Assembly (NCBI GenBank): GCA_039814715.1
Contig: JBCCAR010000018.1
Location: forward strand, 4,856-68,855
Direction of reading: 5' to 3'
DNA: 64,000 bases
Origin: Pseudomonadota bacterium
Lineage (GTDB): Bacteria > Pseudomonadota > Alphaproteobacteria > Sphingomonadales > CAKZYD01
Position 1 is the first letter of the stretch. The number at the start of each line of letters is the position of its first letter. Below are positions 1-62,635 of the stretch, piece after piece. The translations under genes were made by a program, and so were the position numbers. The notes below the pieces were generated by a model. The model had not been told where the DNA came from, did no database searches, and saw only the letters and a program-made list of their open reading frames with translations.

Positions 1-1557
1 CAAAGCCGCCGCCTGACGGACCTCATGGAAGATGCCGCGACTTGGTTTCAAGCGCGCCTCCGTGACGAAAGTGGCCGCGCAGCCCTTGGCTATGTGCAAA
101 AGCGGGCACTGACGACGCAGACGCTCTCAGCCTTCGCGCTTGGATATGGCCCCGATGGGCGCCAACGGTTGCGCCAGGCGATGACCGCAAAAGGCTGGCG
201 CGATAGCGATTTGATTGAAGCGGGGCTGGTTATTCTGCCTGAGGGGGGAAACGAACCCTATGATCGCTTTCGCGGCCGGCTGATGTTCCCCATTCGTGAT
301 GCCAAAGGGCGCTGCATTGCCTTTGGGGGCAGGGCGCTCTCAGCGGATGCAAAAGCAAAATACTTAAATTCGCCCGAAACGAGCCTCTTTCACAAAGGTC
401 GCACACTTTACAATATCGATAAGGCCCGCAAAGCTGCCTATGATAGCGGCCAGCTTATTGTTGCCGAAGGATATATGGATGTCATCGCTTTGGTACAGGC
501 TGGTTTTTCAGCCGCTGTTGCGCCTCTGGGAACAGCCCTCACGGAAGATCAGATTACGCTGCTATGGCGCATGGTCGATGAGCCTATCTTGTGTTTTGAT
601 GGTGACCGTGCGGGCCGCAAAGCAGCGCAGCGAGGCCTTGAGCGGGCTTTGCCGCTTTTAAAACCTGGAAAATCACTCCGCTTTGCCATGCTGCCGCAAG
701 GCAAAGACCCTGATGACCTGATCCAGGCGGAAGGCAAGGGCGCGATGGCGGCGGTGCTAGAGGCTAGCCAGCCATTATCCGCCTTGCTGTGGGATACGCT
801 AGTTGAAAGCGGGGATACATCGACACCAGAACGCCGTGCTGCGATGCAAAAATCAGCCATGGACATCGCTGGAACCATTGAAGATCAAAGTGTGCGCAGT
901 TTCTACCAAAGCGACCTACGCGCACGGCTGAAGACACTATTTTATGGAGATCGCAATACCGGCTTTTCTGCATCAAGTCGCCGGCCAGGGGGCGGCCGGG
1001 CGTGGGCGCCGCCGCCAAAGGCGAGTTCTTTTTTAAAATCTTCGCCGCTGGCCCAAAGCGATTCGGTCACAAATGTGGGTGAAATCATCGTCCTTACTAC
1101 AATTTTAAACCATCCCAGCTTAGTTGTTAGCCATTTGGAAACGCTAGCAAACCTTAATTGTGCCCGAAAAGACATACATTCTGCCCTCGAATCAGTTTTG
1201 GATGCCGCGCCGACGTTAGAAGGACTTGATTCGCAGACGCAGAAGAACACATTAAGAGAATGCATGCCGACGCGCCTGGTTAGCGAGGTCGATCGCGATA
1301 TATTTGTGCGATCTTTATCCTTCACGCGCCCCGGGGCGGAGCTATGGCAGGCAGAGGCGGGGTTGACACATACCTTGTCAATGCTGCGCCGGGTGACGGA
1401 TTTGGAGGAAGAATGCCGCGTTGCGGAACTTGAAGCCGAAAAGGGCGATATGCGGGCCTTGGAACGATGGAAAGGGCTGCGCGCGCAATTGGCACAACAT
1501 AATAAGGACCTGTCGAATTTTGATCGCGGATTAGAAAATGGCCTGGCTGGCCAATAA
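1..1557 (+). CDS. dnaG: DNA primase DnaG, 5' end truncated by the window edge
   Basis: Frame 1 is open from base 1. Toprim region EGYMDVIAL...[12 protein letters not shown] is present. The N-terminal zinc-finger region is absent, so the gene starts upstream of the window. The dnaG-rpoD order is classical. Confidence 0.9.
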
Positions 1558-1610
1558 ATCGCGCCTTTAAAGATGGCAGAGACAACAAGACGTTAAGGAA
1601 TAAAGCGACG

Positions 1611-3686
1611 ATGGCCACCAAAAAATCTCAGGTGATGCAAGCAGATACAGACGGCGAAGAGGGCGGGGATTCGCCTGTGCTCGATATGTCTGAAGCGGGC
1701 GTGCGCACAATGATCGCCAAGGCCAAAGAGGTCGGCTACATCACATATGATGATTTGAATAAGGCCCTGCCGCAGGACCAGATGTCATCCGATCAGATTG
1801 AAGACATCATGTCCACCATGTCGGAAATGGGCATTAATGTCGTTGAGTCCGCCGAGGACGAGGAAAGCTCGCCCGCAAAGGTGGCCAAAACCAAAACAAC
1901 GAAAAAAACCAAAGCTGAAGCCAAAAGCAAAACCAAAAAAGACGACGATGGCGAAGACGACGAGAGCGAAGATGATCGCCGCGATGAGAAGTTTGAGACC
2001 AGTAAAAAGAGCGATCTAGAACGTACGGATGACCCGGTGCGGATGTATCTGCGCGAAATGGGTACTGTCGAATTGCTCAGCCGGGAAGGCGAGATTGCGA
2101 TCGCCAAGCGCATTGAAGCTGGCCGGGAGACGATGATTGACGGGCTATGCGAAAGCCCAATCACTTTTGATTCCATCATCAGTTGGAGTCAGGCCCTTGC
2201 CAATGGCGAGATGCTGCTGCGCGAAATTATTGATTTAGACGCGACCCTTGGCAAAGAGGTCGCTGCAGCGCAAAGCGTGAAGGAAGAAGAAGAGGCTGCA
2301 GAAGAGAAGACTGAGGGTGAAACTGAAAACGCAGCCGATGAGAATGCTGAAGACGAAGACGGCGAAACCACCGAAAATGACGGTGACAGCGACGATGATG
2401 ACGATGATGATGACGAAAACACCATGTCGCTCGCGGCCATGGAAGAACATCTCACGCCCGATGCGATTGCCAAGTTCGACAAAATTACCGATGTCTACAA
2501 GAAGTACGCGAAGGTTCAGCAAGCGCGCTTAGAAGCTGCTGCCGCCAATAAAAGCCTGCCCACCGCGCAGGAAAACCGGTTTTGGAAACTTAAGCATGAG
2601 CTGACAGAGCTCATCAAAGACATGCATTTCCACAATAACCGCATTGAGCAGATGGTCGATCAGCTTTATGGGCTCAACAAGCGCCTTACCTCACTGAGCG
2701 GGCATTTGCTGCGTTTGGCGGAAAGTAACCGCGTGAATCGGCGCGCATTTCTAGAGCACTATCTCGGCAATGAGTTAGAGCCTGGCTGGAACGAACGGGT
2801 GGCCAAGCTTGGTAAGAACTGGGGCAACTTCATTGATAAAGAAGGTGAACAGGTCACCAATATTCGCGATCAAATTGCCGAGATTGCAGAGAAATCAGGT
2901 CTACGCCTCAACGAATTCCGCCGCATCGTGTCCACCGTGCAAAAAGGCGAACGAGAAGCGCGGATTGCCAAGAAGGAAATGGTCGAAGCCAATCTGCGTT
3001 TGGTGATTTCCATTGCGAAGAAATACACCAATCGCGGCCTGCAATTCCTTGATCTCATTCAGGAAGGCAATATCGGCCTTATGAAGGCGGTGGATAAGTT
3101 CGAATATCGCCGCGGCTATAAATTTTCAACCTATGCCACATGGTGGATTAGGCAGGCGATTACCCGCTCCATCGCGGACCAAGCGCGCACGATCCGTATT
3201 CCGGTGCATATGATTGAGACAATCAATAAGTTGGTGCGTACCTCGCGTCAGATGCTGCACGAGATTGGCCGCGAAGCGACGCCGGAAGAACTGGCCGAAC
3301 GCTTGTCCATGCCACTAGATAAAGTGCGCAAGGTGATGAAGATCGCCAAGGAGCCGATTTCACTGGAAACGCCAATTGGTGACGAAGAAGACAGCCATCT
3401 GGGTGATTTCATCGAGGATAAGAACGCGGTTCTGCCAGTGGACGCGGCCATTCACTCCAACCTGCGCGAAACAACGACGCGGGTTCTGGCATCGCTGACT
3501 GCGCGCGAAGAACGGGTGTTGCGCATGCGCTTCGGCATTGGCATGAATACGGACCACACGCTGGAAGAAGTCGGCCAGCAATTTTCCGTGACGCGCGAGC
3601 GTATCCGCCAGATTGAAGCGAAAGCGCTGCGCAAGCTCAAGCATCCAAGCCGTAGCCGTAAATTGCGTAGCTTTTTGGATACGTAG
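1611..3686 (+). CDS. rpoD: RNA polymerase primary sigma factor RpoD (sigma-70)
   Basis: 691 aa. Region 2 reads [39 protein letters not shown] and region 4.2 reads [27 protein letters not shown]. An acidic non-conserved insert is present. Confidence 0.97.
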
Positions 3687-4240: not shown

Positions 4241-4443
4241 GATGCATGCCTTCGAGAAATCTGAAAAATGATGCGCGTGCATACAAGAAGCGCGCGGGCT
4301 TTGCAACACACGTCGCCAGAAAAACGGCTTTTCGGCAACCGAAGGGTCAAATTGTGCGCGCGCGGCGACAAGAGGGCTTGCCAATTGAGCCCCTTAGCGC
4401 CATCACCACGGCACGTAAGAACTGGTTTAGGCCTGTATATTCT

Positions 4444-6255
4444 GTGACTGAAAATGCTTCCCCGCCGCCTGCAGCCGAAAAGCTGAGTCAAATTAAGCTG
4501 CTATGGGCGTTTGTTCAGCGCTATCCATGGCGGCTTGTTGGCGCCCTTGCGTCCTTGTTGGTTGCGTCTGTGACGACACTGGCCATCCCCTTAGCGCTGC
4601 GGCAAGTCGTTGACCGCGGCTTCTCCGCCGATCAGCAAAGCGCCATTGATATGGTGTTTTTACTGCTCCTCGGCCTTGCCATGTTGCTGGCCATTTCAAC
4701 CGCCCTTCGCTTTTATTTTGTGACCTGGATTGGCGAGCGCGTTGTCGCAGACATTCGCATCGCGGTACAAAGCCATTTGCTTACGCTCTCACCGGTGTTT
4801 TTTGAAGAAAACCGCCCCAGCGAGATTTCATCGCGGCTGACCACGGACACCACGCTCATTCAATCTGTCGTTGGCTCAACAGCGTCCATCGCACTGCGCA
4901 ATGCAATTACGGGCCTTGGCGGCATTGGGTTGCTCGTATATCTGAGCCCTGCGCTCACGGGCCTGATGGGCATTGTTATTCCGCTGGTTGTCTTTCCCAT
5001 CGTTTTCCTTGGCCGCCGCGTGCGAAAGCTCAGCCGCTCTAGCCAAGACCGTGTCGCTGACATCGGCGCGATGGCTGACGAAGTGCTTGGCGCGTTGCGG
5101 ATCGTCCAATCTTTCACCCAGCAAGATCGCGAGCGCGCCCGCTTTGGCAGTGCCGTTGATGCGGCGTTCGCAATCGCAAAGAGACGTATTCTGGTGCGCT
5201 CGTCTATGACGGCGATCATCATTTTGTTCATTTTCTCAGCGATTGTCTTCGTGTTGTGGCAGGGCGCCCGCGCTGTAATTGCTGGCGATATGACCGGCGG
5301 TACGATTGCAGCGTTTGTTTTAGTGTCTGGCCTTGTTGCTGGCGCGCTCGGCGCGCTAAGTGAGGTTTACGGCGAGTTGATGCGTGCTGCTGGCGCGGCT
5401 GGGCGCTTGTCCGAACTGATGCAAGTTATTCCGGTGATCAAATCACCTGCAAATCCGCTTCCCTTGCCAATGCCAACGCAGGGGGAGATCGTTTTCAGCG
5501 GCGTGTCTTTCAGCTATCCTAGCAAGCCTGATATTCCCGCCTTACACGATGTTAGTTTTCGCATCGCGCCTGGCCAAACCGTCGCAGTCGTTGGGCCGTC
5601 TGGCGCGGGTAAAACCACGCTGTTTCAATTGATACAACGCTTTTATGATGTGCAGAAAGGCCGTATTACCTTTGACGGTGTTGCCATTGATGGCTGCGAC
5701 TTGGACGCTTTGCGTGAGCGCACATCGCTTGTGCCCCAGGAAGGGACCATTTTCGCTGCAACAGCCTATGAGAACATTTTATATGGTCGTCCAAATGCGT
5801 CTGAAGATGATGTTTGGGCCGCCGCGCGCGCTGCGGCGGCGGATGATTTTTTGACCCAGCTGCCCAGCGGCATTCATAGTTACCTCGGCGAAGCAGGCGT
5901 ACGCCTATCCGGCGGGCAGCGCCAGCGCCTTGCCATTGCCCGTGCGTTGCTGCGAGATGCGCCGGTATTGCTGCTGGATGAGGCAACGAGCGCGCTGGAT
6001 GCGAAATCTGAGCGGCTGGTACAGGGCGCACTGGACCGGTTGATGGAGGGGCGTACCACGCTTGTTATCGCGCACCGCTTGGCGACCATTCAGCGGGCCG
6101 ATAACATCTTAGTGTTTGATCACGGCGAACTGGTAGACCAAGGCACCCATGAGGCGCTTCTGGCCCGCGGCGGACTGTATGCCTCCCTCGCTGCCCTGCA
6201 GTTTAATGCTGAAGGCGGCAGCATTGAGGCATCAACTTCGCCGCTGGTTCACTAG
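4444..6255 (+). CDS. ABC transporter, fused permease/ATP-binding (ABCB/MsbA/Atm1-like exporter)
   Basis: Six-helix TMD followed by an NBD with Walker A GPSGAGKTT, signature LSGGQRQRLAIARALL and Walker B LLLDEATSALD. The ORF opens at 4246, but that start is only 6 nt from the rpmE start codon and adds a basic, non-conserved-looking ~66-aa extension. The in-frame GTG at 4444 is the likelier start, though uncertain. Confidence 0.88.
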   Translation: MTENASPPPAAEKLSQIKLLWAFVQRYPWRLVGALASLLVASVTTLAIPLALRQVVDRGFSADQQSAIDMVFLLLLGLAMLLAISTALRFYFVTWIGERVVADIRIAVQSHLLTLSPVFFEENRPSEISSRLTTDTTLIQSVVGSTASIALRNAITGLGGIGLLVYLSPALTGLMGIVIPLVVFPIVFLGRRVRKLSRSSQDRVADIGAMADEVLGALRIVQSFTQQDRERARFGSAVDAAFAIAKRRILVRSSMTAIIILFIFSAIVFVLWQGARAVIAGDMTGGTIAAFVLVSGLVAGALGALSEVYGELMRAAGAAGRLSELMQVIPVIKSPANPLPLPMPTQGEIVFSGVSFSYPSKPDIPALHDVSFRIAPGQTVAVVGPSGAGKTTLFQLIQRFYDVQKGRITFDGVAIDGCDLDALRERTSLVPQEGTIFAATAYENILYGRPNASEDDVWAAARAAAADDFLTQLPSGIHSYLGEAGVRLSGGQRQRLAIARALLRDAPVLLLDEATSALDAKSERLVQGALDRLMEGRTTLVIAHRLATIQRADNILVFDHGELVDQGTHEALLARGGLYASLAALQFNAEGGSIEASTSPLVH

Positions 6256-6294
6256 TCCCGGGCTTTCACGCCAGCCGTTTCTTCGCTCCTGCCC

Positions 6295-6741
6295 TTATGC
6301 CTGGTGAAGCAAATATAGCGCCGCCCCTGCCAAAAAAAGCTGGATCACATTCAAGATCACACTGCTGCGATGAAGCAGGTTAAACCAGGTTTGCGCTTTT
6401 TGATCGCCCGCCAGCATCGCGTCGCGGAAGGTATTGATGCGCGGCAGCAGAACATAGCGTGCTTTTACGCCCAGAACAGCAACCAAGAACATCACTAAGC
6501 TGGCGGTTTGTGCGCCAGGCGATACAGACAGTGCAAGTCCGCCAATGGCAGCAACCAGTGTCAGATAGACATAATACCAAGGGAAGATGGCGCGAATGAA
6601 AGTCGCTGCCGTTTTCGCCTCCAGCGTGCGAAAGACAGTCGGTGCGACGATGACACTAAAGAAAAGGATTGCACCAAAAACTAGCGACGTTGCGCCTAAT
6701 CCCAAAAACCCGGTGATACTCTGCATGTGCTTTGCTTTCAC
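6295..6741 (-). CDS. Small integral membrane protein, DUF4149/TMEM205-like
   Basis: 148 aa with four hydrophobic spans. The N-terminal pattern LFFSVIVAPTVFRTL...FPWYYVY resembles DUF4149. Assigned by eye only. Confidence 0.6.
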   Translation of the reverse strand: MKAKHMQSITGFLGLGATSLVFGAILFFSVIVAPTVFRTLEAKTAATFIRAIFPWYYVYLTLVAAIGGLALSVSPGAQTASLVMFLVAVLGVKARYVLLPRINTFRDAMLAGDQKAQTWFNLLHRSSVILNVIQLFLAGAALYLLHQA

Positions 6742-6807
6742 TACCGCTGCTCGTACATTAAGCAGATAGCGGGCTTTAGAGGGCGAGCAAGGTATGTAGA
6801 CTAACGC

Positions 6808-7218
6808 CTAGCGAAAAATCAGAAATTTCGATGCGCAATAGGCAATGATCATCACCAAGATGTCTGTCGCAAACCGCAGCAATCGCACATCCTGGCTAAA
6901 TAGCGAAAGTATGATCGCATAAGCAGCAACTGTAATGGCCATATTAAAGGCAAGTAGCCCAAGATATTGGCTGAGCTTAACAGCATGCCTGGTGTCATTG
7001 CTCTGCTGGCGAAAGGTGAAATGGTTGTGCATCAGATAGCCGACTGGCGCGCTGGCAAGGCGGCCAATAATGTTGGCAATTTGCGGTAGACTTGGGATCA
7101 GATACGTTGCGCAAAGGAAGAAGGTCAAATAGTCGGCCGTGAAGACAACAATGCCGGATATACCATAGCGTAGGACTTCTAGGAGAAGCGGTGTTTTGCC
7201 CTTCAGCCAGGTTTGCAC
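6808..7218 (-). CDS. GtrA family membrane protein (putative polyprenyl-phosphate-sugar flippase)
   Basis: 136 aa with four TM helices. GtrA-like start LRYGISGIVVFTADYLTFF and C-terminal end YCASKFLIFR. It lies 6 nt downstream of the GT2 gene. Confidence 0.75.
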   Translation of the reverse strand: MQTWLKGKTPLLLEVLRYGISGIVVFTADYLTFFLCATYLIPSLPQIANIIGRLASAPVGYLMHNHFTFRQQSNDTRHAVKLSQYLGLLAFNMAITVAAYAIILSLFSQDVRLLRFATDILVMIIAYCASKFLIFR

Positions 7219-7224
7219 AGCGCG

Positions 7225-8175
7225 CTAGTGCCCGCGTGATTGCAGGGAGCGGCGCGGCTCGTTGGACATGTCATAGGAGAGGAACTGCAAGACCATCTGA
7301 AAGCCTAGAATGATGGGCAGGACAGAAAGCATAACCGTGCCGATGCTCGCATAGGTGCCTGCTTGACTTGCCTTCACCCAAGAAAAACCGCCGAATAAGA
7401 CGCCGATTAACAAGAGTAACGTGCCGAAAAAGAGATTGACGGAAGCGATGGAGAAATCACGTAAAAAGTACGTGTAAACAATGCGCCGGGCAATGGCGCG
7501 CAAATGCTTGCCAAGAAACTCAAACAGCACCTGGCGAACATGCAGATTGCTCGTCTCTTCGCCATAGACCGCACTCATTGGGTAATCTGCGACCACAGCG
7601 CGCATATCGCCAAGCTGGATCAGCATGTCGGTTTCAAAGAAATAGCGCTTGCTCAGCTTCGACATATCAAGCTGTGATAGCGCAGTTTTATGGATGGCGA
7701 CAAATCCATTTGTCGGATCAAAGATAGACCAATACCCGCTTGAGAATTTCGTCATGAAGCTCAGCATGGCATTCCCAAATAACCGGATAGCGGGCATGGT
7801 TTTGACGCTGTAGAAAGAATGGAAACGGTTGCCTTTCGTGTAATCAGCATCGCCATCGACAAGAGGCTGGACCAGGTCTGTAATTAATTTTGGGTCCATT
7901 TGCCCATCGCCATCCACCTTCACCACGATGTCGCAGCCGTCTTTCATGGCTTGCTGCATACCGGTCATAACTGCGCCGCCAACACCTTGATTGACGGTGT
8001 GTCGCAGAGCGACCACGCGCTTGTCGTTGCAGTGTTCTTCAACAAAGGCTCCAGAATTATTGGGGCAGCAATCATCGACCACATAGACTTTATTGACGTC
8101 AGGACCGATGGAGGAGATCACATCTAGGATGAAATCAGTCACCTTATAGCTAGGGATAACAACGGCTATGGTCAT
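7225..8175 (-). CDS. Family 2 glycosyltransferase, GtrB/ArnC/Dpm1-like polyprenyl-phosphate glycosyltransferase
   Basis: The N-terminus IAVVIPSYKV and the motifs VVDDCCPNNSG and VKVDGDGQMDP are GT-A DXD type. Two C-terminal TM helices match GtrB/ArnC architecture. The start is placed at ATG 8173-8175 (MTIAVVIP); the ORF extends to 8217. Confidence 0.85.
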   Translation of the reverse strand: MTIAVVIPSYKVTDFILDVISSIGPDVNKVYVVDDCCPNNSGAFVEEHCNDKRVVALRHTVNQGVGGAVMTGMQQAMKDGCDIVVKVDGDGQMDPKLITDLVQPLVDGDADYTKGNRFHSFYSVKTMPAIRLFGNAMLSFMTKFSSGYWSIFDPTNGFVAIHKTALSQLDMSKLSKRYFFETDMLIQLGDMRAVVADYPMSAVYGEETSNLHVRQVLFEFLGKHLRAIARRIVYTYFLRDFSIASVNLFFGTLLLLIGVLFGGFSWVKASQAGTYASIGTVMLSVLPIILGFQMVLQFLSYDMSNEPRRSLQSRGH

Positions 8176-8282
8176 TGAGTTACATCCATTCGGCCTGTCT
8201 GTGCTGGCCTCAAACACAGCAATAATTTAACCATCATATCATACACAGCAAGGGCGCAAGTGCGACGTCGCTGCGGCGAGAT

Positions 8283-9908
8283 ATGTTGTGTCTCTGTTGG
8301 AAAGAAAACATGTTTTTTCAATCTATATCAAAGCCTACATGGCTCATTGCGATGCTTGTTTTAGCGAGCGTTGCTATCCATGGCGTTAACGTCGATGGGG
8401 ATGTTGGATGGGGGGGAGGCGACTGGGCCACCTATATTTGGGGGGCTGAAAACCTCCTAGGTGCGCGTCCTTGGGGCGAGGCGCCTTATCTCGTGAACCC
8501 ATTTAAAGATGCCGGCGTAACCAAAGTGCCGCCGCTCTATCCTGCCGTCCTCACTTTGCCGGTCAGCATCTTTGGCCGGGATTTTCTGGCGATTGGCCTC
8601 TTCAATGTTGTGCTTTTCGGTCTCGGGCTGGCCACGTTGTTGGTGTTTGCGCGGCATCGTCCACTGGCCGGGGAGCGCATGTCTAACTTTGCGCTCGGCG
8701 CGCTGTGTCTGGCCTATGCCGGAAGCCCTATGCTCTGGCGTTGGAGTGGCGCTCTCTTTTCAGAAAATCTCTTTTTGCCAATCATCTTTCTAGCGTTCAT
8801 CGCCTGGGATCGGTTTGCCAAACGCAGAACGAAGGCCAGTTTACTCCTGGTATTTGTTTTCTGTGCCTTGGCGATTGCAACCCGCGTTGTTGGCATCGCT
8901 CTTATTCCTGCATTAGGCCTCGCTCTACTGGCCCAGGATCGTGCTCTCACACTGAGGGCCGTCGCATTGCCAGCCGCGCTATTGCTCGTAGGCTTGCTCG
9001 TATTTTTATCCTTCGGCGTTTTAGATCAATATCTAACGGTCTTCTCTTCAAACGCAGCCCTAGACAGTGGGGCTGAGCTAACAGCTCCAGACGTACGAAG
9101 TGCCGGCGGAACTGTTACATCGATTTTGGGCGAGTTGCCGTCAAAATTGGCTGACGTTCCTGGCAAGCTCTCTGCCTTCTGGTCGGATCGATTAGGCGGC
9201 GCCTCGCCAGCGATCAAGCTAGGCGCGCGTTTCATCACGCTGCTTGTTCTTTTGCTATCGACCATTGGTTTTATGGTGTCTTTGGTGCGCCGCACGAGCC
9301 TCGCGGAGGGCTTTATGATCGGGTACCTCGCCATGATGCTCATTGTACCCGGCGCGATGAATGGTGCGCGGATGTACGGCCCCATTGGTGCATTGATGAT
9401 GTATTATACTGTCGCCGCGCTGCAGTGGCTCGGCGAACAACAACAGCGCTTTACTCCGGTTCATACGCCTCTGGTTGTTTTCATCGTTTTGCTCTTAGGG
9501 TCCTACGCCTATTTCTTTGCCCAGGAGCGTCCTTCAAATCTAGCCTCACCATATAGTCCATCAGCGCAAACTTTTTTTGAGTTCGTAAAAGACAATACCG
9601 ACGCGAACGACATCTTGGTTGGTCATCGGCCCCGCGGTGTGGGCTTCTTTACCGGCGTGACGTGTATTGAATGGCATACCAAAACGGCTAGCGATGATTT
9701 TGTCATGTGGATGGCGGATTTGGGCGCTGAGTACCTTTACGTGGACCGTTACTCAGCCCCGCTTGAGAAGATCATGAACGAAAAGTCTGGGTCTTTCCGC
9801 GACGCGGCTGATGCCTATATTGCGCCCAACGCACATCGGTTTGACCGCATTTTCGCGAACGACCGATTTGTGATGTATCGCTTCATTTCAAGCCCGGCGT
9901 CTCGCTGA
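8283..9908 (+). CDS. Polytopic membrane protein, GT-C-fold (ArnT/PMT/GtrC-like) glycosyltransferase candidate
   Basis: 541 aa with roughly ten or more hydrophobic spans, then a soluble C-terminal part of about 130 aa. The first loop carries the acidic motif NVDGDVGWGGGDW. It is divergent from the GT2-GtrA genes. The call rests on architecture and context, not on a recognised signature. Confidence 0.55.
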   Translation: MLCLCWKENMFFQSISKPTWLIAMLVLASVAIHGVNVDGDVGWGGGDWATYIWGAENLLGARPWGEAPYLVNPFKDAGVTKVPPLYPAVLTLPVSIFGRDFLAIGLFNVVLFGLGLATLLVFARHRPLAGERMSNFALGALCLAYAGSPMLWRWSGALFSENLFLPIIFLAFIAWDRFAKRRTKASLLLVFVFCALAIATRVVGIALIPALGLALLAQDRALTLRAVALPAALLLVGLLVFLSFGVLDQYLTVFSSNAALDSGAELTAPDVRSAGGTVTSILGELPSKLADVPGKLSAFWSDRLGGASPAIKLGARFITLLVLLLSTIGFMVSLVRRTSLAEGFMIGYLAMMLIVPGAMNGARMYGPIGALMMYYTVAALQWLGEQQQRFTPVHTPLVVFIVLLLGSYAYFFAQERPSNLASPYSPSAQTFFEFVKDNTDANDILVGHRPRGVGFFTGVTCIEWHTKTASDDFVMWMADLGAEYLYVDRYSAPLEKIMNEKSGSFRDAADAYIAPNAHRFDRIFANDRFVMYRFISSPASR

Positions 9909-47861: not shown

Positions 47862-48641
47862 CTAGGCAGCTGTCCCCAGGTAGCCTAGTTGTGCGGCTTT
47901 GAAGATCGTTTGCGAGCGGTTGACTGTGTTCAGCTTTTCGCCAGCATTTTTGATGTGGAAGCGGATGGTGGCGTGGCTGCGCGAGAGGATCATGGAGATC
48001 TCTCGGTCGGTCTTGCCGACGGCAGCCCAGCGCAAACACTCAACTTCGCGTTTTGTCAGCTGGCAATCCGATGGGACGAGCGAGCGGCCGCGGGTTGCTT
48101 TGACATAGCCGGTGATGAAGCGGTGCGCTAGGACTTGAAGGTCGTCAGCGTGCTGGCCAAAATCATCAGACAGGTCTTCGCGGTTGTCGCGCGGCGCAAG
48201 CGACATGGCGCCAATTTGACCTAGCGGTAAATGCACAGGCACAATGATGCCCGAGCGAATGCCGGAGCGTTTTTCAAAGTCAGAGACGTCAATTTCATCC
48301 AAGAATGGATTGGGTTGACGCGGGTAGAACCCTTCAACATTGCACCAGAAGGGCTCGTTCTCGTAGCGGCACGCGCGCGGCACTGGGCTGGTAAGAGCGA
48401 GGCGGGAATTCTTCCACCATTGTTCGCTTTCATCCGTCCAGCCAAAGACTGTCTCAGCGAGGATGTTCCCATCCTGGTCTTTCATTGGAATTTTGGAGGC
48501 AATGTTATCGCAGGCAGCGATGCGATAGCCGCCAATCGCCTCTGCCATATCGCGCAGCTGGACGGCTGCTGGCAAAACATCCTCTACAGTTTGAATTGCA
48601 AATTCATAGTGATCGGCAACGATTCCCATAAAGCTCCCCAC
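47862..48641 (-). CDS. LuxR family transcriptional regulator with an N-terminal autoinducer-binding-like domain (solo; no luxI in window)
   Basis: The C-terminal HTH reads LTKREVECLRWAAVGKTDREISMILSRSHATIRFHIKNAGEKL. The N-terminal domain of about 180 aa has LuxR/TraR-receptor size and pattern (PFWC..., IIVPVH). Confidence 0.82.
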   Translation of the reverse strand: MGSFMGIVADHYEFAIQTVEDVLPAAVQLRDMAEAIGGYRIAACDNIASKIPMKDQDGNILAETVFGWTDESEQWWKNSRLALTSPVPRACRYENEPFWCNVEGFYPRQPNPFLDEIDVSDFEKRSGIRSGIIVPVHLPLGQIGAMSLAPRDNREDLSDDFGQHADDLQVLAHRFITGYVKATRGRSLVPSDCQLTKREVECLRWAAVGKTDREISMILSRSHATIRFHIKNAGEKLNTVNRSQTIFKAAQLGYLGTAA

Positions 48642-55331: not shown

Positions 55332-55826
55332 ATGGGTTTGTTTGATTTCGTTCGCGACGCTGGGGAAAATTTGCTGAAGAAGGTTGGTGTCGGGGATGAC
55401 CCGGACACCGGTGATGTAATCGCCAAAATCCAAGAGCATGGCTTAGTGGTCAAAGGCCTGTCGGTGCGCGTTGCCGGTGATGTGGCGATGGTTGGCGGCG
55501 AGGTCGCTGATCAAGAAACGCGCGAGAAGGTCATTCTCGTGGTCGGCAATGTCAAAGGCATTGCCGCGGTCGATGATCAATTGTCGATTGTGCTTCCCGA
55601 GCTACCAGAGGTGCCCGCCCCAGAGACAGCGCCAGCGCCTGAGCCTGAGGCCGCTGTCTTCTACACAGTTGTGCGCGGGGATACGCTTGGTAAAATTGCC
55701 AAGGCGCATTATGGCAATGCCATGAAGTATCCGGTGATTTTTGAAGCGAATAAGCCGATGCTCACGGACCCAGACCGCATTTATCCTGGTCAGGTCCTGC
55801 GCATTCCGCCGCTGGCCGTTAGCTAA
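55332..55826 (+). CDS. BON plus LysM domain protein (YgaU/LysM peptidoglycan-binding type)
   Basis: A BON-like region (VAGDVAMVGGEVADQETREKVILVVGNVKGIAAVDDQL), a Pro/Glu linker and a C-terminal LysM (YTVVRGDTLGKIAKAHYG...IYPGQVLRIP). Confidence 0.82.
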   Translation: MGLFDFVRDAGENLLKKVGVGDDPDTGDVIAKIQEHGLVVKGLSVRVAGDVAMVGGEVADQETREKVILVVGNVKGIAAVDDQLSIVLPELPEVPAPETAPAPEPEAAVFYTVVRGDTLGKIAKAHYGNAMKYPVIFEANKPMLTDPDRIYPGQVLRIPPLAVS

Positions 55827-58085
55827 CTAGCGCCGCCGTCGGCCAAGCCGCACATTTTTTGGCCGTCCTTGCTGCGGCCTTGAATTAGGGCGTTTGCGTT
55901 TTGAAGGTCCGTCTAAAAAGCGGTGTTTGGGCTTTGTTAAAATACTCACACGCACCCCGCCGGAGACGGGGGCGGCTTCTTCAATGCGCGCACGCACCTC
56001 ATCGCCCAGCCTGTAGGCCCAGCCTGACCGCTCGCCCACCAGTGCTTGGCGCGTTTCATCATAGACCATGTATTCGTCCGATAGGCGCGCGGCAGGCGCG
56101 AAGGCATCTGCGCCCATATCGCCAACGCGCAGGAATAGCCCAGCTTTGGCAATCCCCGTGATGCGGGCCTCAAAATGCTCACCTTGATGATCAGCAAAAT
56201 AGGCTGCGAGATAGCGGTCCATGGAATCGCGCTCAGCGGCCATCGCGCGCCGTTCAGTGACGGAGATATGGTCGGCCGTGTCGTCCAGCTTTTGCAGTTC
56301 CCACTCCTCTAGCCCGCCTTCGCCCAGCTTGTAAGCGGCGATCAAGGCCCGGTGGACGACGAGGTCCGCATAGCGGCGGATGGGGGAGGTGAAATGCGCG
56401 TAGCGGCCAAGGGCCAAGCCAAAATGGCCCATATTTTCAGGCGTATAGCGCGCTTGCATCTGCGTGCGCAGCACCATATCCGACACGCCAATCATATCCT
56501 CGCGCTCTTTTGACATTTCAAGCACGCGGTTAAAGACCTGGGGCCGCACGACTTGGCCGCGTGCCAGCTTATAGTCAAAGCCATCAAGGAAGCTGCGCAG
56601 CGTCTCCATCTTATCCATGGAAGGCTCTTCATGGACGCGGTAAATCAGCGGCTGGGCTTTTTTCTCTAGCGCTTCCGCCGCTGCAACATTCGCGGCAATC
56701 ATCATGTCTTCCACGACGCGGTGGGCTGTCAGCCTGTCTCTCAAACGCACATCAGAAACCTTGCCATCTGGCCCGAGCAGGATTTTCTTTTCCGGCAAGT
56801 CCAGCGCAAGCGGGCCGCGCTTGTCGCGGGCAGAGGCAATGGCGTTATAGCATTCCAGCAGTGGCCGTAAAACACTATGGATCAAGGGTTTGGTTGCATC
56901 ATCTAAGTCGCCATCAAAGGCTGCTTGGGCTTGCTCATAGCTAATATTGGCTGCGACTTTGATGAGTGCGCGGCTAAAGCGATGGCTCTTCAGCCGCCCA
57001 AGGGCATCAAAATACAAATGCACCGCAAGGCTCGCCCGGTCTTCGCCTTCTTTCAGGCTGCACAGGCCGTTTGATAGCGCTTCGGGCAGCATCGGCACCA
57101 CGCGGTCAGGGAAGTAGCAGCTGTTGCCGCGCTTGCGTGCCTCCTTATCCAGCGCAGATCCGGGACGCACAAACTCAGCGACATCCGCAATGGCCACGAT
57201 CGCATGAAATCCGCCTTCGATATTAGGGTGCGGCGCGGCCCAAATGGCATCATCATGATCACGCGCATCGGCGGGGTCGATGGTGATCAGCGGTACATCA
57301 CGCAGGTCTTCGCGCGCGCCCAGCGGCGGCATCACGGCTGTTTCAGCTAGCTGCACAACCTCGCTGGGGAAGTCGTTGGGGATATCATGCTGGTGGATGG
57401 CAATGAGGCTCACATTGCGCGGGCCCAGTACATCGCCGAGCCGCTCTAAGACCTTTCCTACCTTTGCGCCGCGCTGGCTTGAGCGCAGCACTTCCGCGCG
57501 GACCAATTCCCCATCTTCCGCGCCTTTGTCGTCGCCGGAGGCTACCAGCAGAAAATCGCTTCGACCTTTCTCTACTGACTCAATGAAGCCGCCTTCGCCG
57601 TCATGGCGATAGACGCCCACCATCGCCCGCGGCGGGGCGTCCAGCTTTTTAATGATCTGGCCGCGATAGCCTTTGTCGCCCGCTGGGCGCAGCCGGGCCA
57701 GGACCTTATCGCCTGCCGCAAGCGAAGAAGGGCGCTGGCGCGATTGGCGTCCCCCTTTTTTAAAGTCCTCCAGCCGCACACGCGGCCCATCGCCATCGCC
57801 CTTCCAGGCTTCCGCAAAGCCAAAGGCGCTGCCGCTCTCGCTGATGCCCGTCACATAAACAATAGAGACATTGGGCATTTGCCCGGCCAGTTCATAGCCC
57901 TTGCCTGGCCCGCGCGCGATCATGCCCCGCGCCACCATCTCACGCAGCAGCGTCTTCAAAGCGACACGGTCTTCACCCTTAATGCCAAAGGCATTGGCCA
58001 GGTCACGGCGAGTCACCTTGCTGTCAGCATTTTCTATATAAGAAACAATGTCTTCCGCGAGCGGGAAGGGCGTATCTGTCGTCAT
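55827..58085 (-). CDS. rnr: Ribonuclease R
   Basis: 752 aa. The RNB domain carries ITIDPADARDHDDAIW and HFGLALGRYAHFTSPIRRYADLVVHR. A C-terminal S1 domain and a basic tail follow. Confidence 0.94.
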   Translation of the reverse strand: MTTDTPFPLAEDIVSYIENADSKVTRRDLANAFGIKGEDRVALKTLLREMVARGMIARGPGKGYELAGQMPNVSIVYVTGISESGSAFGFAEAWKGDGDGPRVRLEDFKKGGRQSRQRPSSLAAGDKVLARLRPAGDKGYRGQIIKKLDAPPRAMVGVYRHDGEGGFIESVEKGRSDFLLVASGDDKGAEDGELVRAEVLRSSQRGAKVGKVLERLGDVLGPRNVSLIAIHQHDIPNDFPSEVVQLAETAVMPPLGAREDLRDVPLITIDPADARDHDDAIWAAPHPNIEGGFHAIVAIADVAEFVRPGSALDKEARKRGNSCYFPDRVVPMLPEALSNGLCSLKEGEDRASLAVHLYFDALGRLKSHRFSRALIKVAANISYEQAQAAFDGDLDDATKPLIHSVLRPLLECYNAIASARDKRGPLALDLPEKKILLGPDGKVSDVRLRDRLTAHRVVEDMMIAANVAAAEALEKKAQPLIYRVHEEPSMDKMETLRSFLDGFDYKLARGQVVRPQVFNRVLEMSKEREDMIGVSDMVLRTQMQARYTPENMGHFGLALGRYAHFTSPIRRYADLVVHRALIAAYKLGEGGLEEWELQKLDDTADHISVTERRAMAAERDSMDRYLAAYFADHQGEHFEARITGIAKAGLFLRVGDMGADAFAPAARLSDEYMVYDETRQALVGERSGWAYRLGDEVRARIEEAAPVSGGVRVSILTKPKHRFLDGPSKRKRPNSRPQQGRPKNVRLGRRRR

Positions 58086-58207
58086 GGCGAGACGTTAGCG
58101 CGTTTAGATGGCCCTTGTCGAAAAGGATTTGTTCGCATGGTATAAAAAATAGAACGTACCACGCTGCATAGTGCACGTGTGAGCCGCTCACTCACAGCAG
58201 CGCATGC

Positions 58208-58231
58208 AAAAACAGGGGCGCAAGGCCCCTG
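58208..58231 (-). terminator. Rho-independent terminator after the first sorting-signal protein gene
   Basis: Read on the minus strand: CAGGGGC-cttgc-GCCCCTG followed by TTTTT. It lies about 30 nt past the stop at 58260. Confidence 0.7.
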
Positions 58232-58259
58232 TGTTCGAAATTCCTAACATGTCTCTGGA

Positions 58260-58955
58260 TCAGCCTGCGGATGGCATGCCCAGCGCTTTACGGATTGACC
58301 TGCGGCGCAGGGCGCCCGCGCCGAGGAGCGCAGAGCCGAACAGAATGCCTGCAGCTGGGACGGGTACGGCGGAAACAGTGAGCTCAAAGGTGCCTGCATT
58401 AGGATCGTTATCGCCTTCCCAAAAAGCAATCTCGTACAGGCCTGCCTCCAAAGAGGAGAACAGAACAGTGCCGCTTTCTAGGGTGTCGTTGAAAACGCTA
58501 TTTGGATCAGAGTCAAAGTTGTCGCCGATGCGTTGGCAATTCTGGGCACCGCCGCCGGAGGCCACGTTGGCGCAATTTACAGAGAGGTTGGCTGCATTCG
58601 CCGTTACAATCGTACGGTCGGGTGTGGTCACATCGGTTCCACTAATATTCGCGCCATTCGGCAGTCGGAACAAACCAAAGCCAGAGGAGCCGTCTTCATT
58701 GCCAGCGCTTGTATAGTCAGCGAGGGTTAGCGAGAACTGCGGTGTTAAAACTTCAAAACGGATCGTGCCTGAGGCGACATTCCCACTTTGCGTATCAAAC
58801 GTGGCCTTCAGGGTATTGCCACCACTACCAATATCACTGAAAACAGCTTGGTTCTGGGTGAAATGGTAACTGTCGAACGTCGCTGCCTGGGAAGATCCAA
58901 TGAGGCACATCGCTGCCACACTAGACATCAAGGCGATAGAAAGAGACTTGCTCAT
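58260..58955 (-). CDS. Secreted protein with a VPLPA/PEP-CTERM-like C-terminal sorting signal (paralogue 1)
   Basis: Signal peptide MSKSLSIALMSSVAAMCLIGSSQA. The body is Gly/Asn/Ser/Thr-rich and probably beta-rich. The C-terminus reads VPVPAAGILFGSALLGAGALRRRSIRKALGMPSAG. Confidence 0.75.
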   Translation of the reverse strand: MSKSLSIALMSSVAAMCLIGSSQAATFDSYHFTQNQAVFSDIGSGGNTLKATFDTQSGNVASGTIRFEVLTPQFSLTLADYTSAGNEDGSSGFGLFRLPNGANISGTDVTTPDRTIVTANAANLSVNCANVASGGGAQNCQRIGDNFDSDPNSVFNDTLESGTVLFSSLEAGLYEIAFWEGDNDPNAGTFELTVSAVPVPAAGILFGSALLGAGALRRRSIRKALGMPSAG

Positions 58956-59173
58956 AGATAAATACCCTTACGCAACATAAACAAAAGAGGCGCTAAAACA
59001 CTCGCGCTTGCCGAGTAGTGAGCAAATTGAGTGCCAAGACGGCTAAGGGTTTGAATTATCGGGAGTTTAAGACTGGCGCGCGCTGATTTTTTGCTAAGCT
59101 GTTAAAGATACCGACAGTCCTGGGTTGCGCCGGTTATCGTTCATGGCCTGCATTGCGGGTATAGACGAGACAC

Positions 59174-59200
59174 AAAAAAAGGGGCCGAGGCCCCTTTTTT
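59174..59200. terminator. Bidirectional rho-independent terminator after the second sorting-signal protein gene
   Basis: A7, then GGGGCC-ga-GGCCCC, then T6. It lies 23 nt past the stop at 59223. Confidence 0.8.
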
Positions 59201-59222
59201 CAAACTGTTTGCCAATGAAGGA

Positions 59223-59828
59223 CTAGGCAGCGGTCGGCATACCCAGTGTTTTTTGGATCGACCGGCGACGAAGGAACGCCGCGCCAAATAGAGCAGAGCC
59301 GAAAAGAATGCCAGCTGCCGGTATCGGCACCTCTGACAACGTAAACTGTATCAAAGCGGTCTGCGGAGTGTTATTTTGATCGTCTATTTCTAACACATAA
59401 TCACCTGGGGCCAGGTTTGAGAACAAAATGGTGCCTGGCTGCGGCCCATTGGCGTTAGAACCTTCAGGTCGCAAAACAAAACATCCAAGGTTGGTACTCG
59501 TAATTCGACCTGAGCAATTTTGAGTGGAAATATCAACTGGTGGTGGCGCCCCAGTATTTGTTGAGTACAAACCGGCTAGAGAGCCCCCAGACGTGCTACT
59601 ATCGCCATAAGTTGAAAACGTAAGCTTAGTCGCCACTGTCGTTGAAAAAGACCAAAAAAGCTCGCCCGGAAAAGTAAAAGTTGCTGGAGATTCCAAAATA
59701 TCTCCAGGTCCCGCACTCGTGGCAGTCGCCGGTAACGTTGTCGAACCATTTATCGTCGCCGCGTTTGCAGCACCGAGCACTGATGACATACAAAAAACTG
59801 CACCAGCAATAAAACTAGAAAAATTCAT
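59223..59828 (-). CDS. Secreted protein with a VPLPA/PEP-CTERM-like C-terminal sorting signal (paralogue 2)
   Basis: The start at ATG 59826-59828 has GGAGG 6 nt upstream. Signal peptide MNFSSFIAGAVFCMSSVLGAANA. The C-terminus reads VPIPAAGILFGSALFGAAFLRRRSIQKTLGMPTAA. It shares the GT(I/V)LFS.L..G.Y block with paralogue 1. Confidence 0.75.
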   Translation of the reverse strand: MNFSSFIAGAVFCMSSVLGAANAATINGSTTLPATATSAGPGDILESPATFTFPGELFWSFSTTVATKLTFSTYGDSSTSGGSLAGLYSTNTGAPPPVDISTQNCSGRITSTNLGCFVLRPEGSNANGPQPGTILFSNLAPGDYVLEIDDQNNTPQTALIQFTLSEVPIPAAGILFGSALFGAAFLRRRSIQKTLGMPTAA

Positions 59829-60049
59829 TAAAACCTCCAAATGCAGGATTGATCACAATATAAAGCTGCTCGTACTGCAAGACAGTATTTTCGTGTAGGC
59901 AAGCAAAACCCATGCCAAACTCACAATGCGCTGTTTTGGCACACTTTTTTTGCAAGTGCGAAATCGCGTTAACCATGGGTTGTAAAAAAGTCCGACAATT
60001 CACTTTGGTTCGCTTCTAAAGTGTATGACGGTTTGTTCCTCTAAAAGGA

Positions 60050-62635
60050 CTAGGCTTTGGACGCTGCAGCCTTCTTTGCGCGCGGTTTTTTGGCCGCTGG
60101 CTTTTTCTTTGCGGCCGGTTTTTTCTTGCCGCCTTTTTCTGCTTTTGCAGCAATGAGCTCCAGCGCGCGCTCTAAGGTGAGGGCGTCTGGGTCATCGTCT
60201 TTCAGCAGGCTGGCGTTGATCTTGCCGTGCTTGACATAGGGGCCGTAGCGGCCCTTGAGCAATTGGATGGCGCCGCCATCGGGGTGGTCGCCCATTTCTT
60301 TTAAGACCGAAGGCCCTGCGCGGCCAGCGGATTTGGCATCAGCAAGGAGGGCGACGGCGCGGTTGAGGCCGACGGTGAGCACTTCTTCGGTGGAGGTGAG
60401 CTTTGCGGTCTTGCCATCATGCGAGAGGTAGGGGCCGTAACGCCCTATTGTGGCAAAGATTTCTTTGCCAGTTTCCGGGTGGTCGCCCACCGTGCGCGGC
60501 AGGCTTAACAGGTTGAGCGCGCCTGCTAGGTCGATGGTGGCCGCGTCCATATCCTTCGGGATGGATGCGCGTTTGGGCTTTATTTTCTTGTCTTCGCCTT
60601 GCTCGCCTAGCTGCACAAATGGTCCAAAGCGGCCAGAGCGCGCGGTCACATCAAGCTGGGTTTCTGGGTCTTGGCCAAGCAAGCGCGGCTCGTTGCTCAG
60701 ACCTGCCTTGTCAACGTCTGCATCGGCGCTGAATTGGCGGGTGAAGTTACACTCTGGGTAATTGGAGCAGCCAACAAACGCGCCATAGCGGCCGATTTTT
60801 AAAGATAGCTCTCCGGTATCGCACGCCGGGCAAGCGCGGGCAGGTTTACCTTCTTCAGCAGGCTGGAACAAATAGGGACCAAGATAGTCGTTTAGCGCGT
60901 CTAAGATAGCCGTTGTGCGCTGCGCCAAAACTTCCTCTGTTTTGGGCTTAAAATCCTGCCAGAAGGCGCGCAGTACTTCTTTCCAATCGGCTTCGCCGGC
61001 CGAGACCTTGTCGAGCTGCTCTTCTAAGTCTGCAGTGAAGCTGTATTCGACGTAGCGATCAAAAAATTTCTCTAGGAAGGCGGTGACCAAGCGGCCTTTG
61101 TCTTCGGGAAAGAAGCGGTTCTTGTCCATGAGGACATATTGCCGGTCGCGCAGGGTTTGAAGCGTGGAGGCATAAGTCGAGGGGCGGCCAATGCCCAGCT
61201 CTTCAAGCTTTTTCACAAGCGAGGCTTCGGAATAGCGCGGCGGCGGCTCTGTGAAGTGCTGGTTGGCGTTCACTTTATCGACTTGCGGGCGCATGCCTTT
61301 TTGCATGGCGGGCAAGCGGCCGTCATCGTCATCCTTGCTGTCGTCTTTGCCTTCCAGATACAGCTGCATGAAGCCAGGGAAGGCGATGACTTGGCCCGAC
61401 GCACGCACGGCGTGTTTGCCGTCTGCGCTGAGGAAATCAGCGGTGGTGCGCTCTAAGATGGCTGTCGCCATTTGGCTGGCGATGGCACGGTCCCAGATCA
61501 GCTTGTAGAGCTTCTTTTGATCGTCATTGAGGTAGCTGGCCACGTCCTTGGGATGGCGGGCAAAATCGGTGGGGCGCACAGCTTCGTGCGCTTCTTGAGC
61601 GTTCTTCGCTTTGGTTGCATAAAAACGCGGCTTTTCGGGCAAATAGTCCTGGCCAAAGCGCGCGCCAATAGCGCTGCGGGCGGACGCGATGGCTTCATTG
61701 GCCATTTGGACGCCGTCCGTCCTCATATAGGTGATAAGGCCGGAGGTCTCGCCGCCGATAGAGACACCTTCATAGAGCTTCTGCGCCACTTGCATGGTGC
61801 GGCTGGCGGAAAAGCCGAGCTTGCGAGACGCTTCCTGCTGCAAGGTGGACGTGGTGAATGGCGGCGCTGGATTGCGCTTCACGGGCTTGGCTTCGAGGCT
61901 ATCCAGCGTGAAGCTCGCTGCTTCAATCGCTGCGCGCGCGGCGACAGCGCTGGTTTCATTTTCGAGCGTGAATTTGCTGACTTTTTTCCCGTCCAGTTGC
62001 GTCAGGCGCGCCTGAAACGCCTCGCCCTTATCGGTCTTCGCGTCGACCAAGACGGACCAATATTCGCGCGGCTCAAAGGCCTCGATTTCCATCTCGCGGT
62101 CCACAATGATGCGCAAGGCGACAGACTGCACCCGGCCAGCAGAGCGCGCACTAGGCAGTTTGCGCCATAGAACAGGAGACAAGGTGAAGCCCACTAGATA
62201 ATCGAGCGCGCGGCGCGCCAAATAGGCGTCAATAAGCTCATTATTGAGGTCGCGCGGCTGCGCCATTGCCGTTTGGACGGCTGATTTCGTGATTTCGTTA
62301 AAGACCACGCGTTTGACCGGCTTGTCTTTGAGTGCCTTCTTTTTCTTTAAGACCTCCAAGACATGCCAGGAGATGGCTTCGCCTTCGCGGTCCGGGTCCG
62401 TCGCGAGGATGAGTTGGTCCGCGCCTTTCATGGCTGCGGCGATTTCATTGAGGCGTTTGCTGCTATCACGGTCAACGGCCCAGGACATGGAAAAATCGTC
62501 CTCTGGAACCACCGAGCCATCTTTGGCCGGCAAGTCGCGTACATGGCCATAGCTTGCCAGTACGGTGAAATCTTTGCCTAGATATTTGTTGATGGTTTTT
62601 GCCTTGGCAGGCGATTCGACGATAACAACGTCCAT
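60050..62635 (-). CDS. topA: DNA topoisomerase I
   Basis: 861 aa. Toprim start MDVVIVESPAKAKTINKYLG, active-site region ITYMRTDG, C-terminal zinc-ribbon repeats (CPACDTG, CSNYPEC) and a Lys-rich tail. Confidence 0.96.
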   Translation of the reverse strand: MDVVIVESPAKAKTINKYLGKDFTVLASYGHVRDLPAKDGSVVPEDDFSMSWAVDRDSSKRLNEIAAAMKGADQLILATDPDREGEAISWHVLEVLKKKKALKDKPVKRVVFNEITKSAVQTAMAQPRDLNNELIDAYLARRALDYLVGFTLSPVLWRKLPSARSAGRVQSVALRIIVDREMEIEAFEPREYWSVLVDAKTDKGEAFQARLTQLDGKKVSKFTLENETSAVAARAAIEAASFTLDSLEAKPVKRNPAPPFTTSTLQQEASRKLGFSASRTMQVAQKLYEGVSIGGETSGLITYMRTDGVQMANEAIASARSAIGARFGQDYLPEKPRFYATKAKNAQEAHEAVRPTDFARHPKDVASYLNDDQKKLYKLIWDRAIASQMATAILERTTADFLSADGKHAVRASGQVIAFPGFMQLYLEGKDDSKDDDDGRLPAMQKGMRPQVDKVNANQHFTEPPPRYSEASLVKKLEELGIGRPSTYASTLQTLRDRQYVLMDKNRFFPEDKGRLVTAFLEKFFDRYVEYSFTADLEEQLDKVSAGEADWKEVLRAFWQDFKPKTEEVLAQRTTAILDALNDYLGPYLFQPAEEGKPARACPACDTGELSLKIGRYGAFVGCSNYPECNFTRQFSADADVDKAGLSNEPRLLGQDPETQLDVTARSGRFGPFVQLGEQGEDKKIKPKRASIPKDMDAATIDLAGALNLLSLPRTVGDHPETGKEIFATIGRYGPYLSHDGKTAKLTSTEEVLTVGLNRAVALLADAKSAGRAGPSVLKEMGDHPDGGAIQLLKGRYGPYVKHGKINASLLKDDDPDALTLERALELIAAKAEKGGKKKPAAKKKPAAKKPRAKKAAASKA

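Follow-up and report, generated by a model that had tools for sequence, protein, structure and literature searches.

Two tandem genes between topA and rnr as probable cargo genes of a VPLPA/PEP-CTERM exosortase system, with a conserved segment beyond the sorting signal

The g1/g2 gene pair and the described sorting systems

Many environmental and biofilm-forming bacteria possess exosortase systems, whose biochemistry is poorly understood. We describe here two tandem genes, designated g1 and g2, in a 64,000-nucleotide (nt) stretch of the alphaproteobacterial contig JBCCAR010000018.1 (this whole stretch is called the window); their products end in a VPLPA/PEP-CTERM-like sorting signal followed by a further conserved segment, the tail. 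In the PEP-CTERM/EpsH (XrtA) system, with PrsK, PrsR, PrsT, and sigma-54, the cargo genes are mostly scattered single-gene operons with sigma-54 promoters and large upstream regions (Haft et al. 2006, PMC1569441). Their regulatory module comprises a 17-nt motif 1 with the 3' end TTTACA, a spacer of 62.8 ± 10.6 nt, a sigma-54 motif 2, and 71 ± 38 nt to the start, and the phylogenetic profile of the module matches those of PrsR, PrsK, and PrsT (PMC1569441). PepA of Zoogloea and Aquincola (NF033554) is a small secreted protein encoded next to exopolysaccharide (EPS) and exosortase-system genes, and Aquincola pepA, which has its own terminator, is RpoN-dependent by experiment (PMC9850573). The VPLPA-CTERM signal (TIGR03370), with its specific exosortase XrtD (TIGR04152), combines a VP-x-PA motif, a hydrophobic helix of roughly 14-20 residues, and an Arg/Lys cluster, and typical members read PAA-x-W-LF. 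On the evidence given below, we consider g1 and g2 to be cargo genes that are under sigma-54 control and belong to a VPLPA/PEP-CTERM exosortase system; for the whole of this explanation, including the mechanism and the docking or retention role of the tail set out further on, we estimate a probability of about 0.75.

The two genes are flanked by the housekeeping genes rnr (55827-58085) and topA (60050-62635), with dprA further out, and are identical in sequence to the proteins AAF221_09500 (g1) and AAF221_09505 (g2) of the NCBI metagenome-assembled genome (MAG); feature coordinates are collected in Table 1. The start codon of g2 is an ATG with GGAGG 8 nt upstream, and its open frame extends to a TTG at 59840. 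With their hydrophobic core and AxA site (SSQA/AT and ANA/AT), both N termini are predicted to be Sec signal peptides. The bodies contain 41% (g1) and 44% (g2) Gly, Asn, Ser, and Thr taken together, 30 to 34% Ser, Thr, and Asn, at most 3% Lys and Arg, and about 1% Cys, a composition that, with the predicted signal peptide, fits the Ser/Thr/Asn-rich secreted body, poor in basic residues and Cys, of PEP-CTERM proteins. When the two proteins were compared by BLASTP, the similarity was restricted to a single significant segment, the last 71 residues (55% identity, E = 8e-24), and we therefore regard g1 and g2 as paralogues with diverged bodies and a common C terminus. The C termini are VPVPAAGILFGSALLGAGALRRRSIRKALGMPSAG and VPIPAAGILFGSALFGAAFLRRRSIQKTLGMPTAA, with the joint consensus VP(V/I)PAAGILFGSAL(L/F)GA..(L)RRRSI(R/Q)K(A/T)LGMP(S/T)A. 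The initial annotation, made from the letters of the window, had described tandem secreted paralogues with Gly/Asn/Ser/Thr-rich bodies and nearly identical C termini; the open reading frames (ORFs) are where it placed them, and this description holds. A block GT(V/I)LFS.L..G.Y that it had seen in both proteins lies at residues 162-174 of g1, with G172 and Y174 invariant among the aligned orthologues.

The control regions of the two genes carry the assignment. Upstream of each gene a motif 1 and a sigma-54 promoter are separated by a 63-nt spacer, and each gene is followed by its own intrinsic terminator, as the initial annotation had stated. Judged by module spacing and single-gene operon form, g1 and g2 follow the published layout of the PEP-CTERM regulon, and because the regulatory module matches the published one we regard their class as settled. 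In an alignment of the g2 upstream region with three orthologous loci, TTGGCA(C/T)-N5-TTTGC was invariant. The pattern TGGCAY-N5-TTGCW has two exact matches in the 64 kb (0.46 expected), both on the minus strand and upstream of g1 and g2, and TGTCGG-N8-ACA has three (0.22 expected), two of which lie upstream of these genes. Motif 1, which ends in TTTACA or TTAACA, is conserved in L006, L017, L020, and L024 (loci of relatives are numbered L, and their proteins P). The composite module stands upstream of 10 tail-bearing genes at six distinct loci (the window, L006, L015, L017, L020, and L024) and had no other occurrence in the loci scanned. No sigma-70 promoter was found. A plus-strand TGGCAC...TTGCA at 59937-59954 was rejected as a sigma-54 site, since the spacing from GG to GC is 14 instead of 12 and the strand is wrong; a riboswitch or small RNA in the intergenic regions was likewise rejected, the only Rfam match being at chance level (RF02066 on the g2 terminator, E = 0.77). 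The A-tract/hairpin/U-tract form of the g2 terminator could allow it to act in both directions. Between an enhancer and a sigma-54 promoter, a DNA-bending or integration host factor (IHF) site is usual; the g2 interval (59918-59980, minus strand) contains an A-rich GCACTTGCAAAAAAAGTGTGCCAAAAC, partly conserved in L006, which could be a DNA-bending or IHF-type site.

At the protein level, the signal of g1 and g2 has the same three parts as the VPLPA-CTERM signal, with the motif VP(V/I)PA where PEP-CTERM proteins have a near-invariant Pro-Glu-Pro, and TIGR03370 was the top sorting-domain model for both in the NCBIfam scan. No further ORF in the 64-kb window carries a VPxPA-type sorting signal. 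With the PEP-CTERM/EpsH system, the pair shares single-gene operons, large upstream regions, motif 1, the spacer of about 63 nt, the sigma-54 promoter, a signal peptide, a Ser/Thr/Asn-rich body, occurrence in several copies, and, in relatives, association with EPS loci; it differs by the absence of Pro-Glu-Pro. With PepA it shares small size, secretion, and its own RpoN promoter and terminator, whereas PepA has VPEP and no tail, and g1 and g2 lie between housekeeping genes instead of in an EPS locus. Residues 118-220 of g1 match the floc_PepA model NF033554 at 1.1e-9 (38.5 bits against a cut-off of 80, hence not an equivalog), g2 scores 14.4 bits on the same model, and the g2 body matches the EDSAP-1 PEP-CTERM family at 3.6e-5, far below its cut-off. 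By these scores, g1 and g2 would be at most distant homologues of floc_PepA. The LPXTG/sortase system resembles the present one in its tripartite order of motif, helix, and basic cluster and in having many substrates to one enzyme (PMC1569441), but its sequence and enzyme are unrelated, it anchors proteins to the Gram-positive cell wall, and nothing conserved follows its basic cluster.

The tail beyond the Arg cluster

The hidden Markov model (HMM) matches end at the Arg cluster (residue 219 in g1 and 189 in g2), and 11-12 residues follow. As the initial annotation had proposed, this tail lies outside the canonical signal: no NCBIfam or Pfam model spanned it in the scans of g1 and g2, the 25 positions of TIGR03370 leave out the 9-12 residue extension of the tail-bearing subclass, and the tail recurs in 22 sequences. 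Since 13% of PEP-CTERM proteins have at least 10 residues after the domain (Haft et al. 2006, PMC1569441), g1 and g2 fall outside the 87% majority and inside the described range (PMC1569441). No earlier description of the tail was found in the literature searched, including that on XrtD and VPLPA.

An exhaustive search of 1.84 billion cluster representatives, for which the query was all 251 columns of P0003 and not the C terminus alone, gave 460 matches at E ≤ 1e-3. Large multi-repeat proteins were also matched, because of a generic L..G.Y...V strand motif in the P0003 query, and were disregarded. The best 150 of the 460, a ranking biased to the query's tail, included 132 small proteins with a recognisable signal; 22 of these carry the tail of g1 and g2, 18 an xGAFxRAS tail, 19 an acidic tail ending in AA or AV, and 12 other long tails, and in 61 of the 132 at most 6 residues follow the basic run. 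A profile search with a 47-column tail profile returned short fragments only and added little. In a less biased sample of Joint Genome Institute (JGI) metagenome contigs, at most 6 residues follow the basic cluster in 81 of 95 VPxPAA domains, and none of the 95 has the present tail.

The 22 tails come from at least 8 distinct loci and align without gaps as RR[RKS]x[ILMV]xxx[LFVY]G[LMI]P and 1-3 further residues. G and P are invariant in all 22 sequences, whose bodies can no longer be aligned. The proportions of synonymous and non-synonymous sites that differ (pS and pN, uncorrected) were obtained for 11 genes from six loci; in the last 20 codons of the body pS/pN was 0.79/0.54, whereas the signal gave 0.65/0.11 and the tail 0.72/0.27. 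The resulting pN/pS ratios of 0.38 for the tail and 0.17 for the signal indicate that the constraint on the tail is the weaker one, and in this comparison the synonymous sites of the tail are saturated. Between g1 and g2 themselves, 4.5 of 7 synonymous and 2.5 of 20 non-synonymous sites differ in the tail, as do 14 of 21.7 synonymous sites in the signal. On the basis of this synonymous divergence, we attribute the identity of the C termini to selection acting on the peptide and not to recent conversion or to a nucleotide-level element. The initial annotation had argued that conservation of the tail implies function; purifying selection is borne out by these ratios, whereas function is a step beyond them.

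The tail goes together with a particular form of the membrane-proximal signal, in that g1 and g2 have PAAG-(I/V/L)-LF where typical VPLPA-CTERM members have PAA-x-W-LF. A tail of at least 8 residues was found with 41 of 56 PAAG[ILVM] signals versus 18 of 213 PAAxW signals, in a sample that is non-independent, being shaped by the queries and by shared ancestry. As far as sequence comparison goes, the tail and PAAG-Φ-LF together define a rare subclass of the signal, and what is new about the tail is that it is a rare, selectively maintained, predicted cytoplasmic extension of a known signal class.

The gene order topA, two such genes, rnr is also present in L006, from the same sample (topA 77% identical in nucleotides). 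The topA-rnr slot holds two genes in L015/L016 and in L020 and three in L017, and L007 shows the rnr-proximal one. The tail is shared by orthologous loci whose nucleotide identity is 72-77% and by unrelated EPS loci as well: GLP-tail genes lie directly 5' of Poly_export in PEP-CTERM-type EPS loci in L018/L019 (P0178), L023 (P0158), and L024 (P0182/P0295). The chain-length determinant of L018 scores above the cut-off of the 'XrtA system' model TIGR03007. L023 has, 2 kb upstream, a fusion of an exosortase with EpsI that reaches 479 bits on TIGR04152, the model of the VPLPA-CTERM-specific exosortase XrtD (cut-off 400), and XrtD adjoins tail-bearing relatives in L002, L003, and L023. In low-GC gammaproteobacterial XrtD loci, the proteins at the same locus position have a GRRKKK...xGAF(T/A)RAS tail, and a Parvularculaceae MAG has yet another tail there.

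Two observations were made on the xGAFxRAS tail. The gammaproteobacterial XrtD loci (L002 9284-10600; L003 4422-5752; L009 9410-10757; L010; L011) have two small VPVPAA-type genes before Poly_export, the first without a long conserved tail (ending ...ATSRRKKNS) and the second, which adjoins Poly_export, always with GRRKKK...xGAF(T/A)RAS, so that tail-bearing and tail-less signals coexist side by side. The metagenomic proteins P0006 and P0010 have bodies of the DVUA0089 family (NF038127; 103-113 bits, passing the cut-off), which means that this tail is joined to unrelated bodies as well.

Proposed mechanism and alternative explanations

In the explanation that we favor, each gene would be a single-gene operon that has a site for a PrsR-like activator of the NtrC family and a sigma-54 promoter, encodes a small secreted protein of jelly-roll type, and ends in an intrinsic terminator. 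The protein would be exported by Sec and stay anchored in the inner membrane through the C-terminal helix; VPxPAAG would lie on the periplasmic side, and the Arg cluster and tail in the cytoplasm. A VPLPA-CTERM-specific, XrtD-type exosortase encoded elsewhere in the genome would cut at VPxPA, and the body would be released or transferred to the exopolysaccharide matrix or the cell surface, a fate also proposed for floc proteins like PepA. The tail (9-12 residues, Φ-xxx-Φ-G-Φ-P plus 1-3) would prolong the helix by about two turns into the cytoplasm and end it with a Gly-Φ-Pro cap, most likely serving, on the cytoplasmic side, for docking to or retention at the sorting or EPS-export machinery.

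An AlphaFold2 model of g1, built from a 36-sequence alignment (predicted local distance difference test 81, predicted template modelling (TM) score 0.73), has a beta-sandwich body and a single predicted helix, residues 201-225, which passes RRR, enters the tail, reaches L225, and stops at G-M-P. When this model was compared with the PDB by Foldseek, weak jelly-roll matches were obtained to carbohydrate-binding modules (CBM6, CBM16, CBM32, and CBM61), a hyaluronan-binding module, and Eph ligand-binding domains (best E 2.2e-3, TM score at most 0.5). The modelled fold is compatible with the g1 body being a glycan-binding matrix protein. The initial annotation had likened the shared block to pre-peptidase C-terminal (PPC) domains; this likeness was rejected, as there was no Pfam match to PPC at E ≤ 10 and the predicted fold is a larger jelly-roll, weakly similar to the modules just named.

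Several results weigh against this explanation. Both proteins score below the cut-off of TIGR03370 (25.35 bits; scores in Table 1), of the PEP-CTERM model TIGR02595 (13.2 for g1 and 9.2 for g2; cut-off 16), and of Pfam PF07589 (9.6 and 11.2; cut-off 20.7), so that formal HMM membership is lacking, and both are annotated as hypothetical by the NCBI Prokaryotic Genome Annotation Pipeline. The initial annotation had placed the signal in the PEP-CTERM/VPLPA-like class and had named TIGR03370 and TIGR02595 as the models to run: both match, but below threshold. Biochemical proof of exosortase cleavage at a VPLPA-type signal was not found in the literature searched. A tblastn search of the window with two exosortases gave no match, and the 64 kb contain no PrsK, PrsR, PrsT, or EPS genes. 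There is no obvious reason to expect conservation in a part of the protein that is discarded after cleavage, and the sample behind the PAAG correlation is non-independent, as noted above. Close homologues without the tail exist (P0132, P0134, and P0135), P0132 being the closest full-length homologue, and some relatives can therefore dispense with the tail. The tail is also missing from three neighbouring VPLPA-type proteins in L018; this, together with P0132, shows that not all proteins with the signal have the tail.

Set against these points, the tail-bearing relative P0178 does pass TIGR03370 (25.7 bits), and the tail-bearing P0142 (partial) passes TIGR02595 (16.9 bits). The initial annotation had found the lack of an exosortase or EPS locus in the window striking; the absence is real but is expected and not anomalous, because PEP-CTERM genes are mostly scattered single-gene operons and relatives of g1 and g2 lie in EPS/XrtD loci. 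By analogy with those relatives, an XrtD-type exosortase is expected elsewhere in this genome. We conclude that g1 and g2 are additional VPLPA/PEP-CTERM cargo members missed by current models and otherwise a well-behaved example of a known system.

The signal could be assigned correctly and the tail could still lack a specific function, being a lineage-inherited prolongation and capping of the helix that persists through weak structural constraint and through descent among related genes. Such an account would be in keeping with the published 13% of PEP-CTERM proteins with at least 10 residues after the domain (PMC1569441), the variety of unrelated tails on signals of this class, among them xGAFxRAS and acidic ...AA/AV, the tail-less homologues, and the weaker constraint on the tail (pN/pS 0.38) than on the signal (0.17). 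It fits poorly with the fixed length and spacing and the invariant G and P in 22 sequences whose bodies cannot be aligned, with the saturated synonymous sites, and with the covariation of the tail with a distinct membrane-proximal signal form, and we consider it unlikely, although deserving of attention. An extension of the favored explanation is that the tail and PAAG-Φ-LF act as a second, cytoplasmic-side determinant in a two-part signal, which would give the cargo that heads XrtD-type EPS export operons a distinct fate (coupling to export or autokinase, or retention); the topA-rnr genes would then be dispersed copies, and the unrelated, equally conserved tails found at this locus position in other lineages (xGAFxRAS and so on) lineage-specific equivalents. 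This idea is speculative, and we give it only a small chance of being correct.

Another reading is that g1 and g2 are uncleaved type-I inner-membrane proteins with a periplasmic jelly-roll, whose tail contacts a cytoplasmic EPS component (a tyrosine autokinase, for instance) and in this way links a glycan-binding module with the export of the polymer. A selected cytoplasmic tail is easier to explain if it is kept, and the sub-threshold HMM scores, the weak CBM-like matches of the modelled body, and the occurrence in three lineages of three different tails on a gene directly upstream of Poly_export, chain-length determinant, and autokinase genes all agree with this reading. However, both the VPxPA-helix-RRR layout and the XrtD surroundings characterize exosortase substrates, the regulatory module is that of PEP-CTERM cargo, and tail-less close homologues occur; in light of these results, we judge the reading to be decidedly improbable. 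A recent gene conversion or duplication, suggested by the tandem arrangement and by similarity limited to the last 71 residues, has hardly any probability as the source of the C-terminal identity and is effectively refuted by the saturation of synonymous sites (including the differences between g1 and g2 given above) and by the same tail in the orthologous and the unrelated EPS loci.

For the VPLPA/PEP-CTERM cargo explanation, the tail matters as a conserved cytoplasmic-side segment that co-varies with the membrane-proximal helix and thus offers a concrete, mutable handle on sorting. This handle bears on substrate choice by XrtD-type enzymes, on cargo retention, and on the physical coupling of protein sorting to polysaccharide export. 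g1 and g2 miss every curated cut-off and carry the annotation hypothetical, and a few other members just pass; a subclass-specific model would correct this.

Features and other genes of the window

Table 1. Coordinates in the window of the features of g1 and g2, in order of transcription.
Feature	Position	Strand	Description
g2 motif 1 (enhancer-like)	59981..59997	-	TGTCGGACTTTTTTACA, 17 nt, ends TTTACA; predicted PrsR-type activator site
g2 sigma-54 -24/-12 promoter	59902..59917	-	TGGCATGGGTTTTGCT; 63 nt after motif 1, 73 nt before ATG
g2 coding sequence	59223..59828	-	201 residues: signal peptide, jelly-roll-type body, sorting signal, tail
g2 sorting signal	59262..59330	-	residues 167-189: VPIPAAG, hydrophobic helix, RRR; TIGR03370 15.7 bits, sub-threshold
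g2 tail	59226..59261	-	residues 190-201: SIQKTLGMPTAA; outside all models
g2 intrinsic terminator	59174..59201	-	GGGGCC/GGCCCC hairpin flanked by A-tract and U-tract; -20.4 kcal/mol, z = -3.3
g1 motif 1 (enhancer-like)	59100..59116	-	TGTCGGTATCTTTAACA; 63-nt spacer to promoter, as in g2
g1 sigma-54 -24/-12 promoter	59021..59036	-	TGGCACTCAATTTGCT; 65 nt before ATG
g1 coding sequence	58260..58955	-	231 residues: signal peptide, jelly-roll-type body, sorting signal, tail
g1 sorting signal	58299..58367	-	residues 197-219: VPVPAAG, hydrophobic helix, RRR; TIGR03370 match 18.8 bits
g1 tail	58263..58298	-	residues 220-231: SIRKALGMPSAG; outside all models
g1 intrinsic terminator	58212..58232	-	hairpin ACAGGGGC/GCCCCUGU, then U5

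Elsewhere in the window, an ABC exporter whose membrane and ATPase domains are fused is encoded at 4246-6255, a GT2 glycosyltransferase at 7225-8217 (minus strand), and a divergent PMT_2-type glycosyltransferase with eight transmembrane segments at 8283-9908; the last of these was the sole exosortase candidate with eight such segments in the window and was rejected on this identification. The region 4246-9908 is a small glycan-related cluster and not an EPS/exosortase locus. At 47862-48641 (minus strand) lies the gene for a LuxR-family regulator that combines an autoinducer-binding domain (PF03472) with GerE; no LuxI-like gene was noticed beside it, and it may be a quorum-sensing 'solo'. A protein with BON and LysM domains (55332-55826, plus strand) adjoins rnr and is convergent with it.

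An ORF of 170 residues runs antisense to g1 at 58204-58716 (plus strand). In L006, the gene caller chose such an antisense ORF (1550-2389, minus strand) over the real gene (1529-2176, plus strand), and the g1/g2 family is therefore prone to misannotation.

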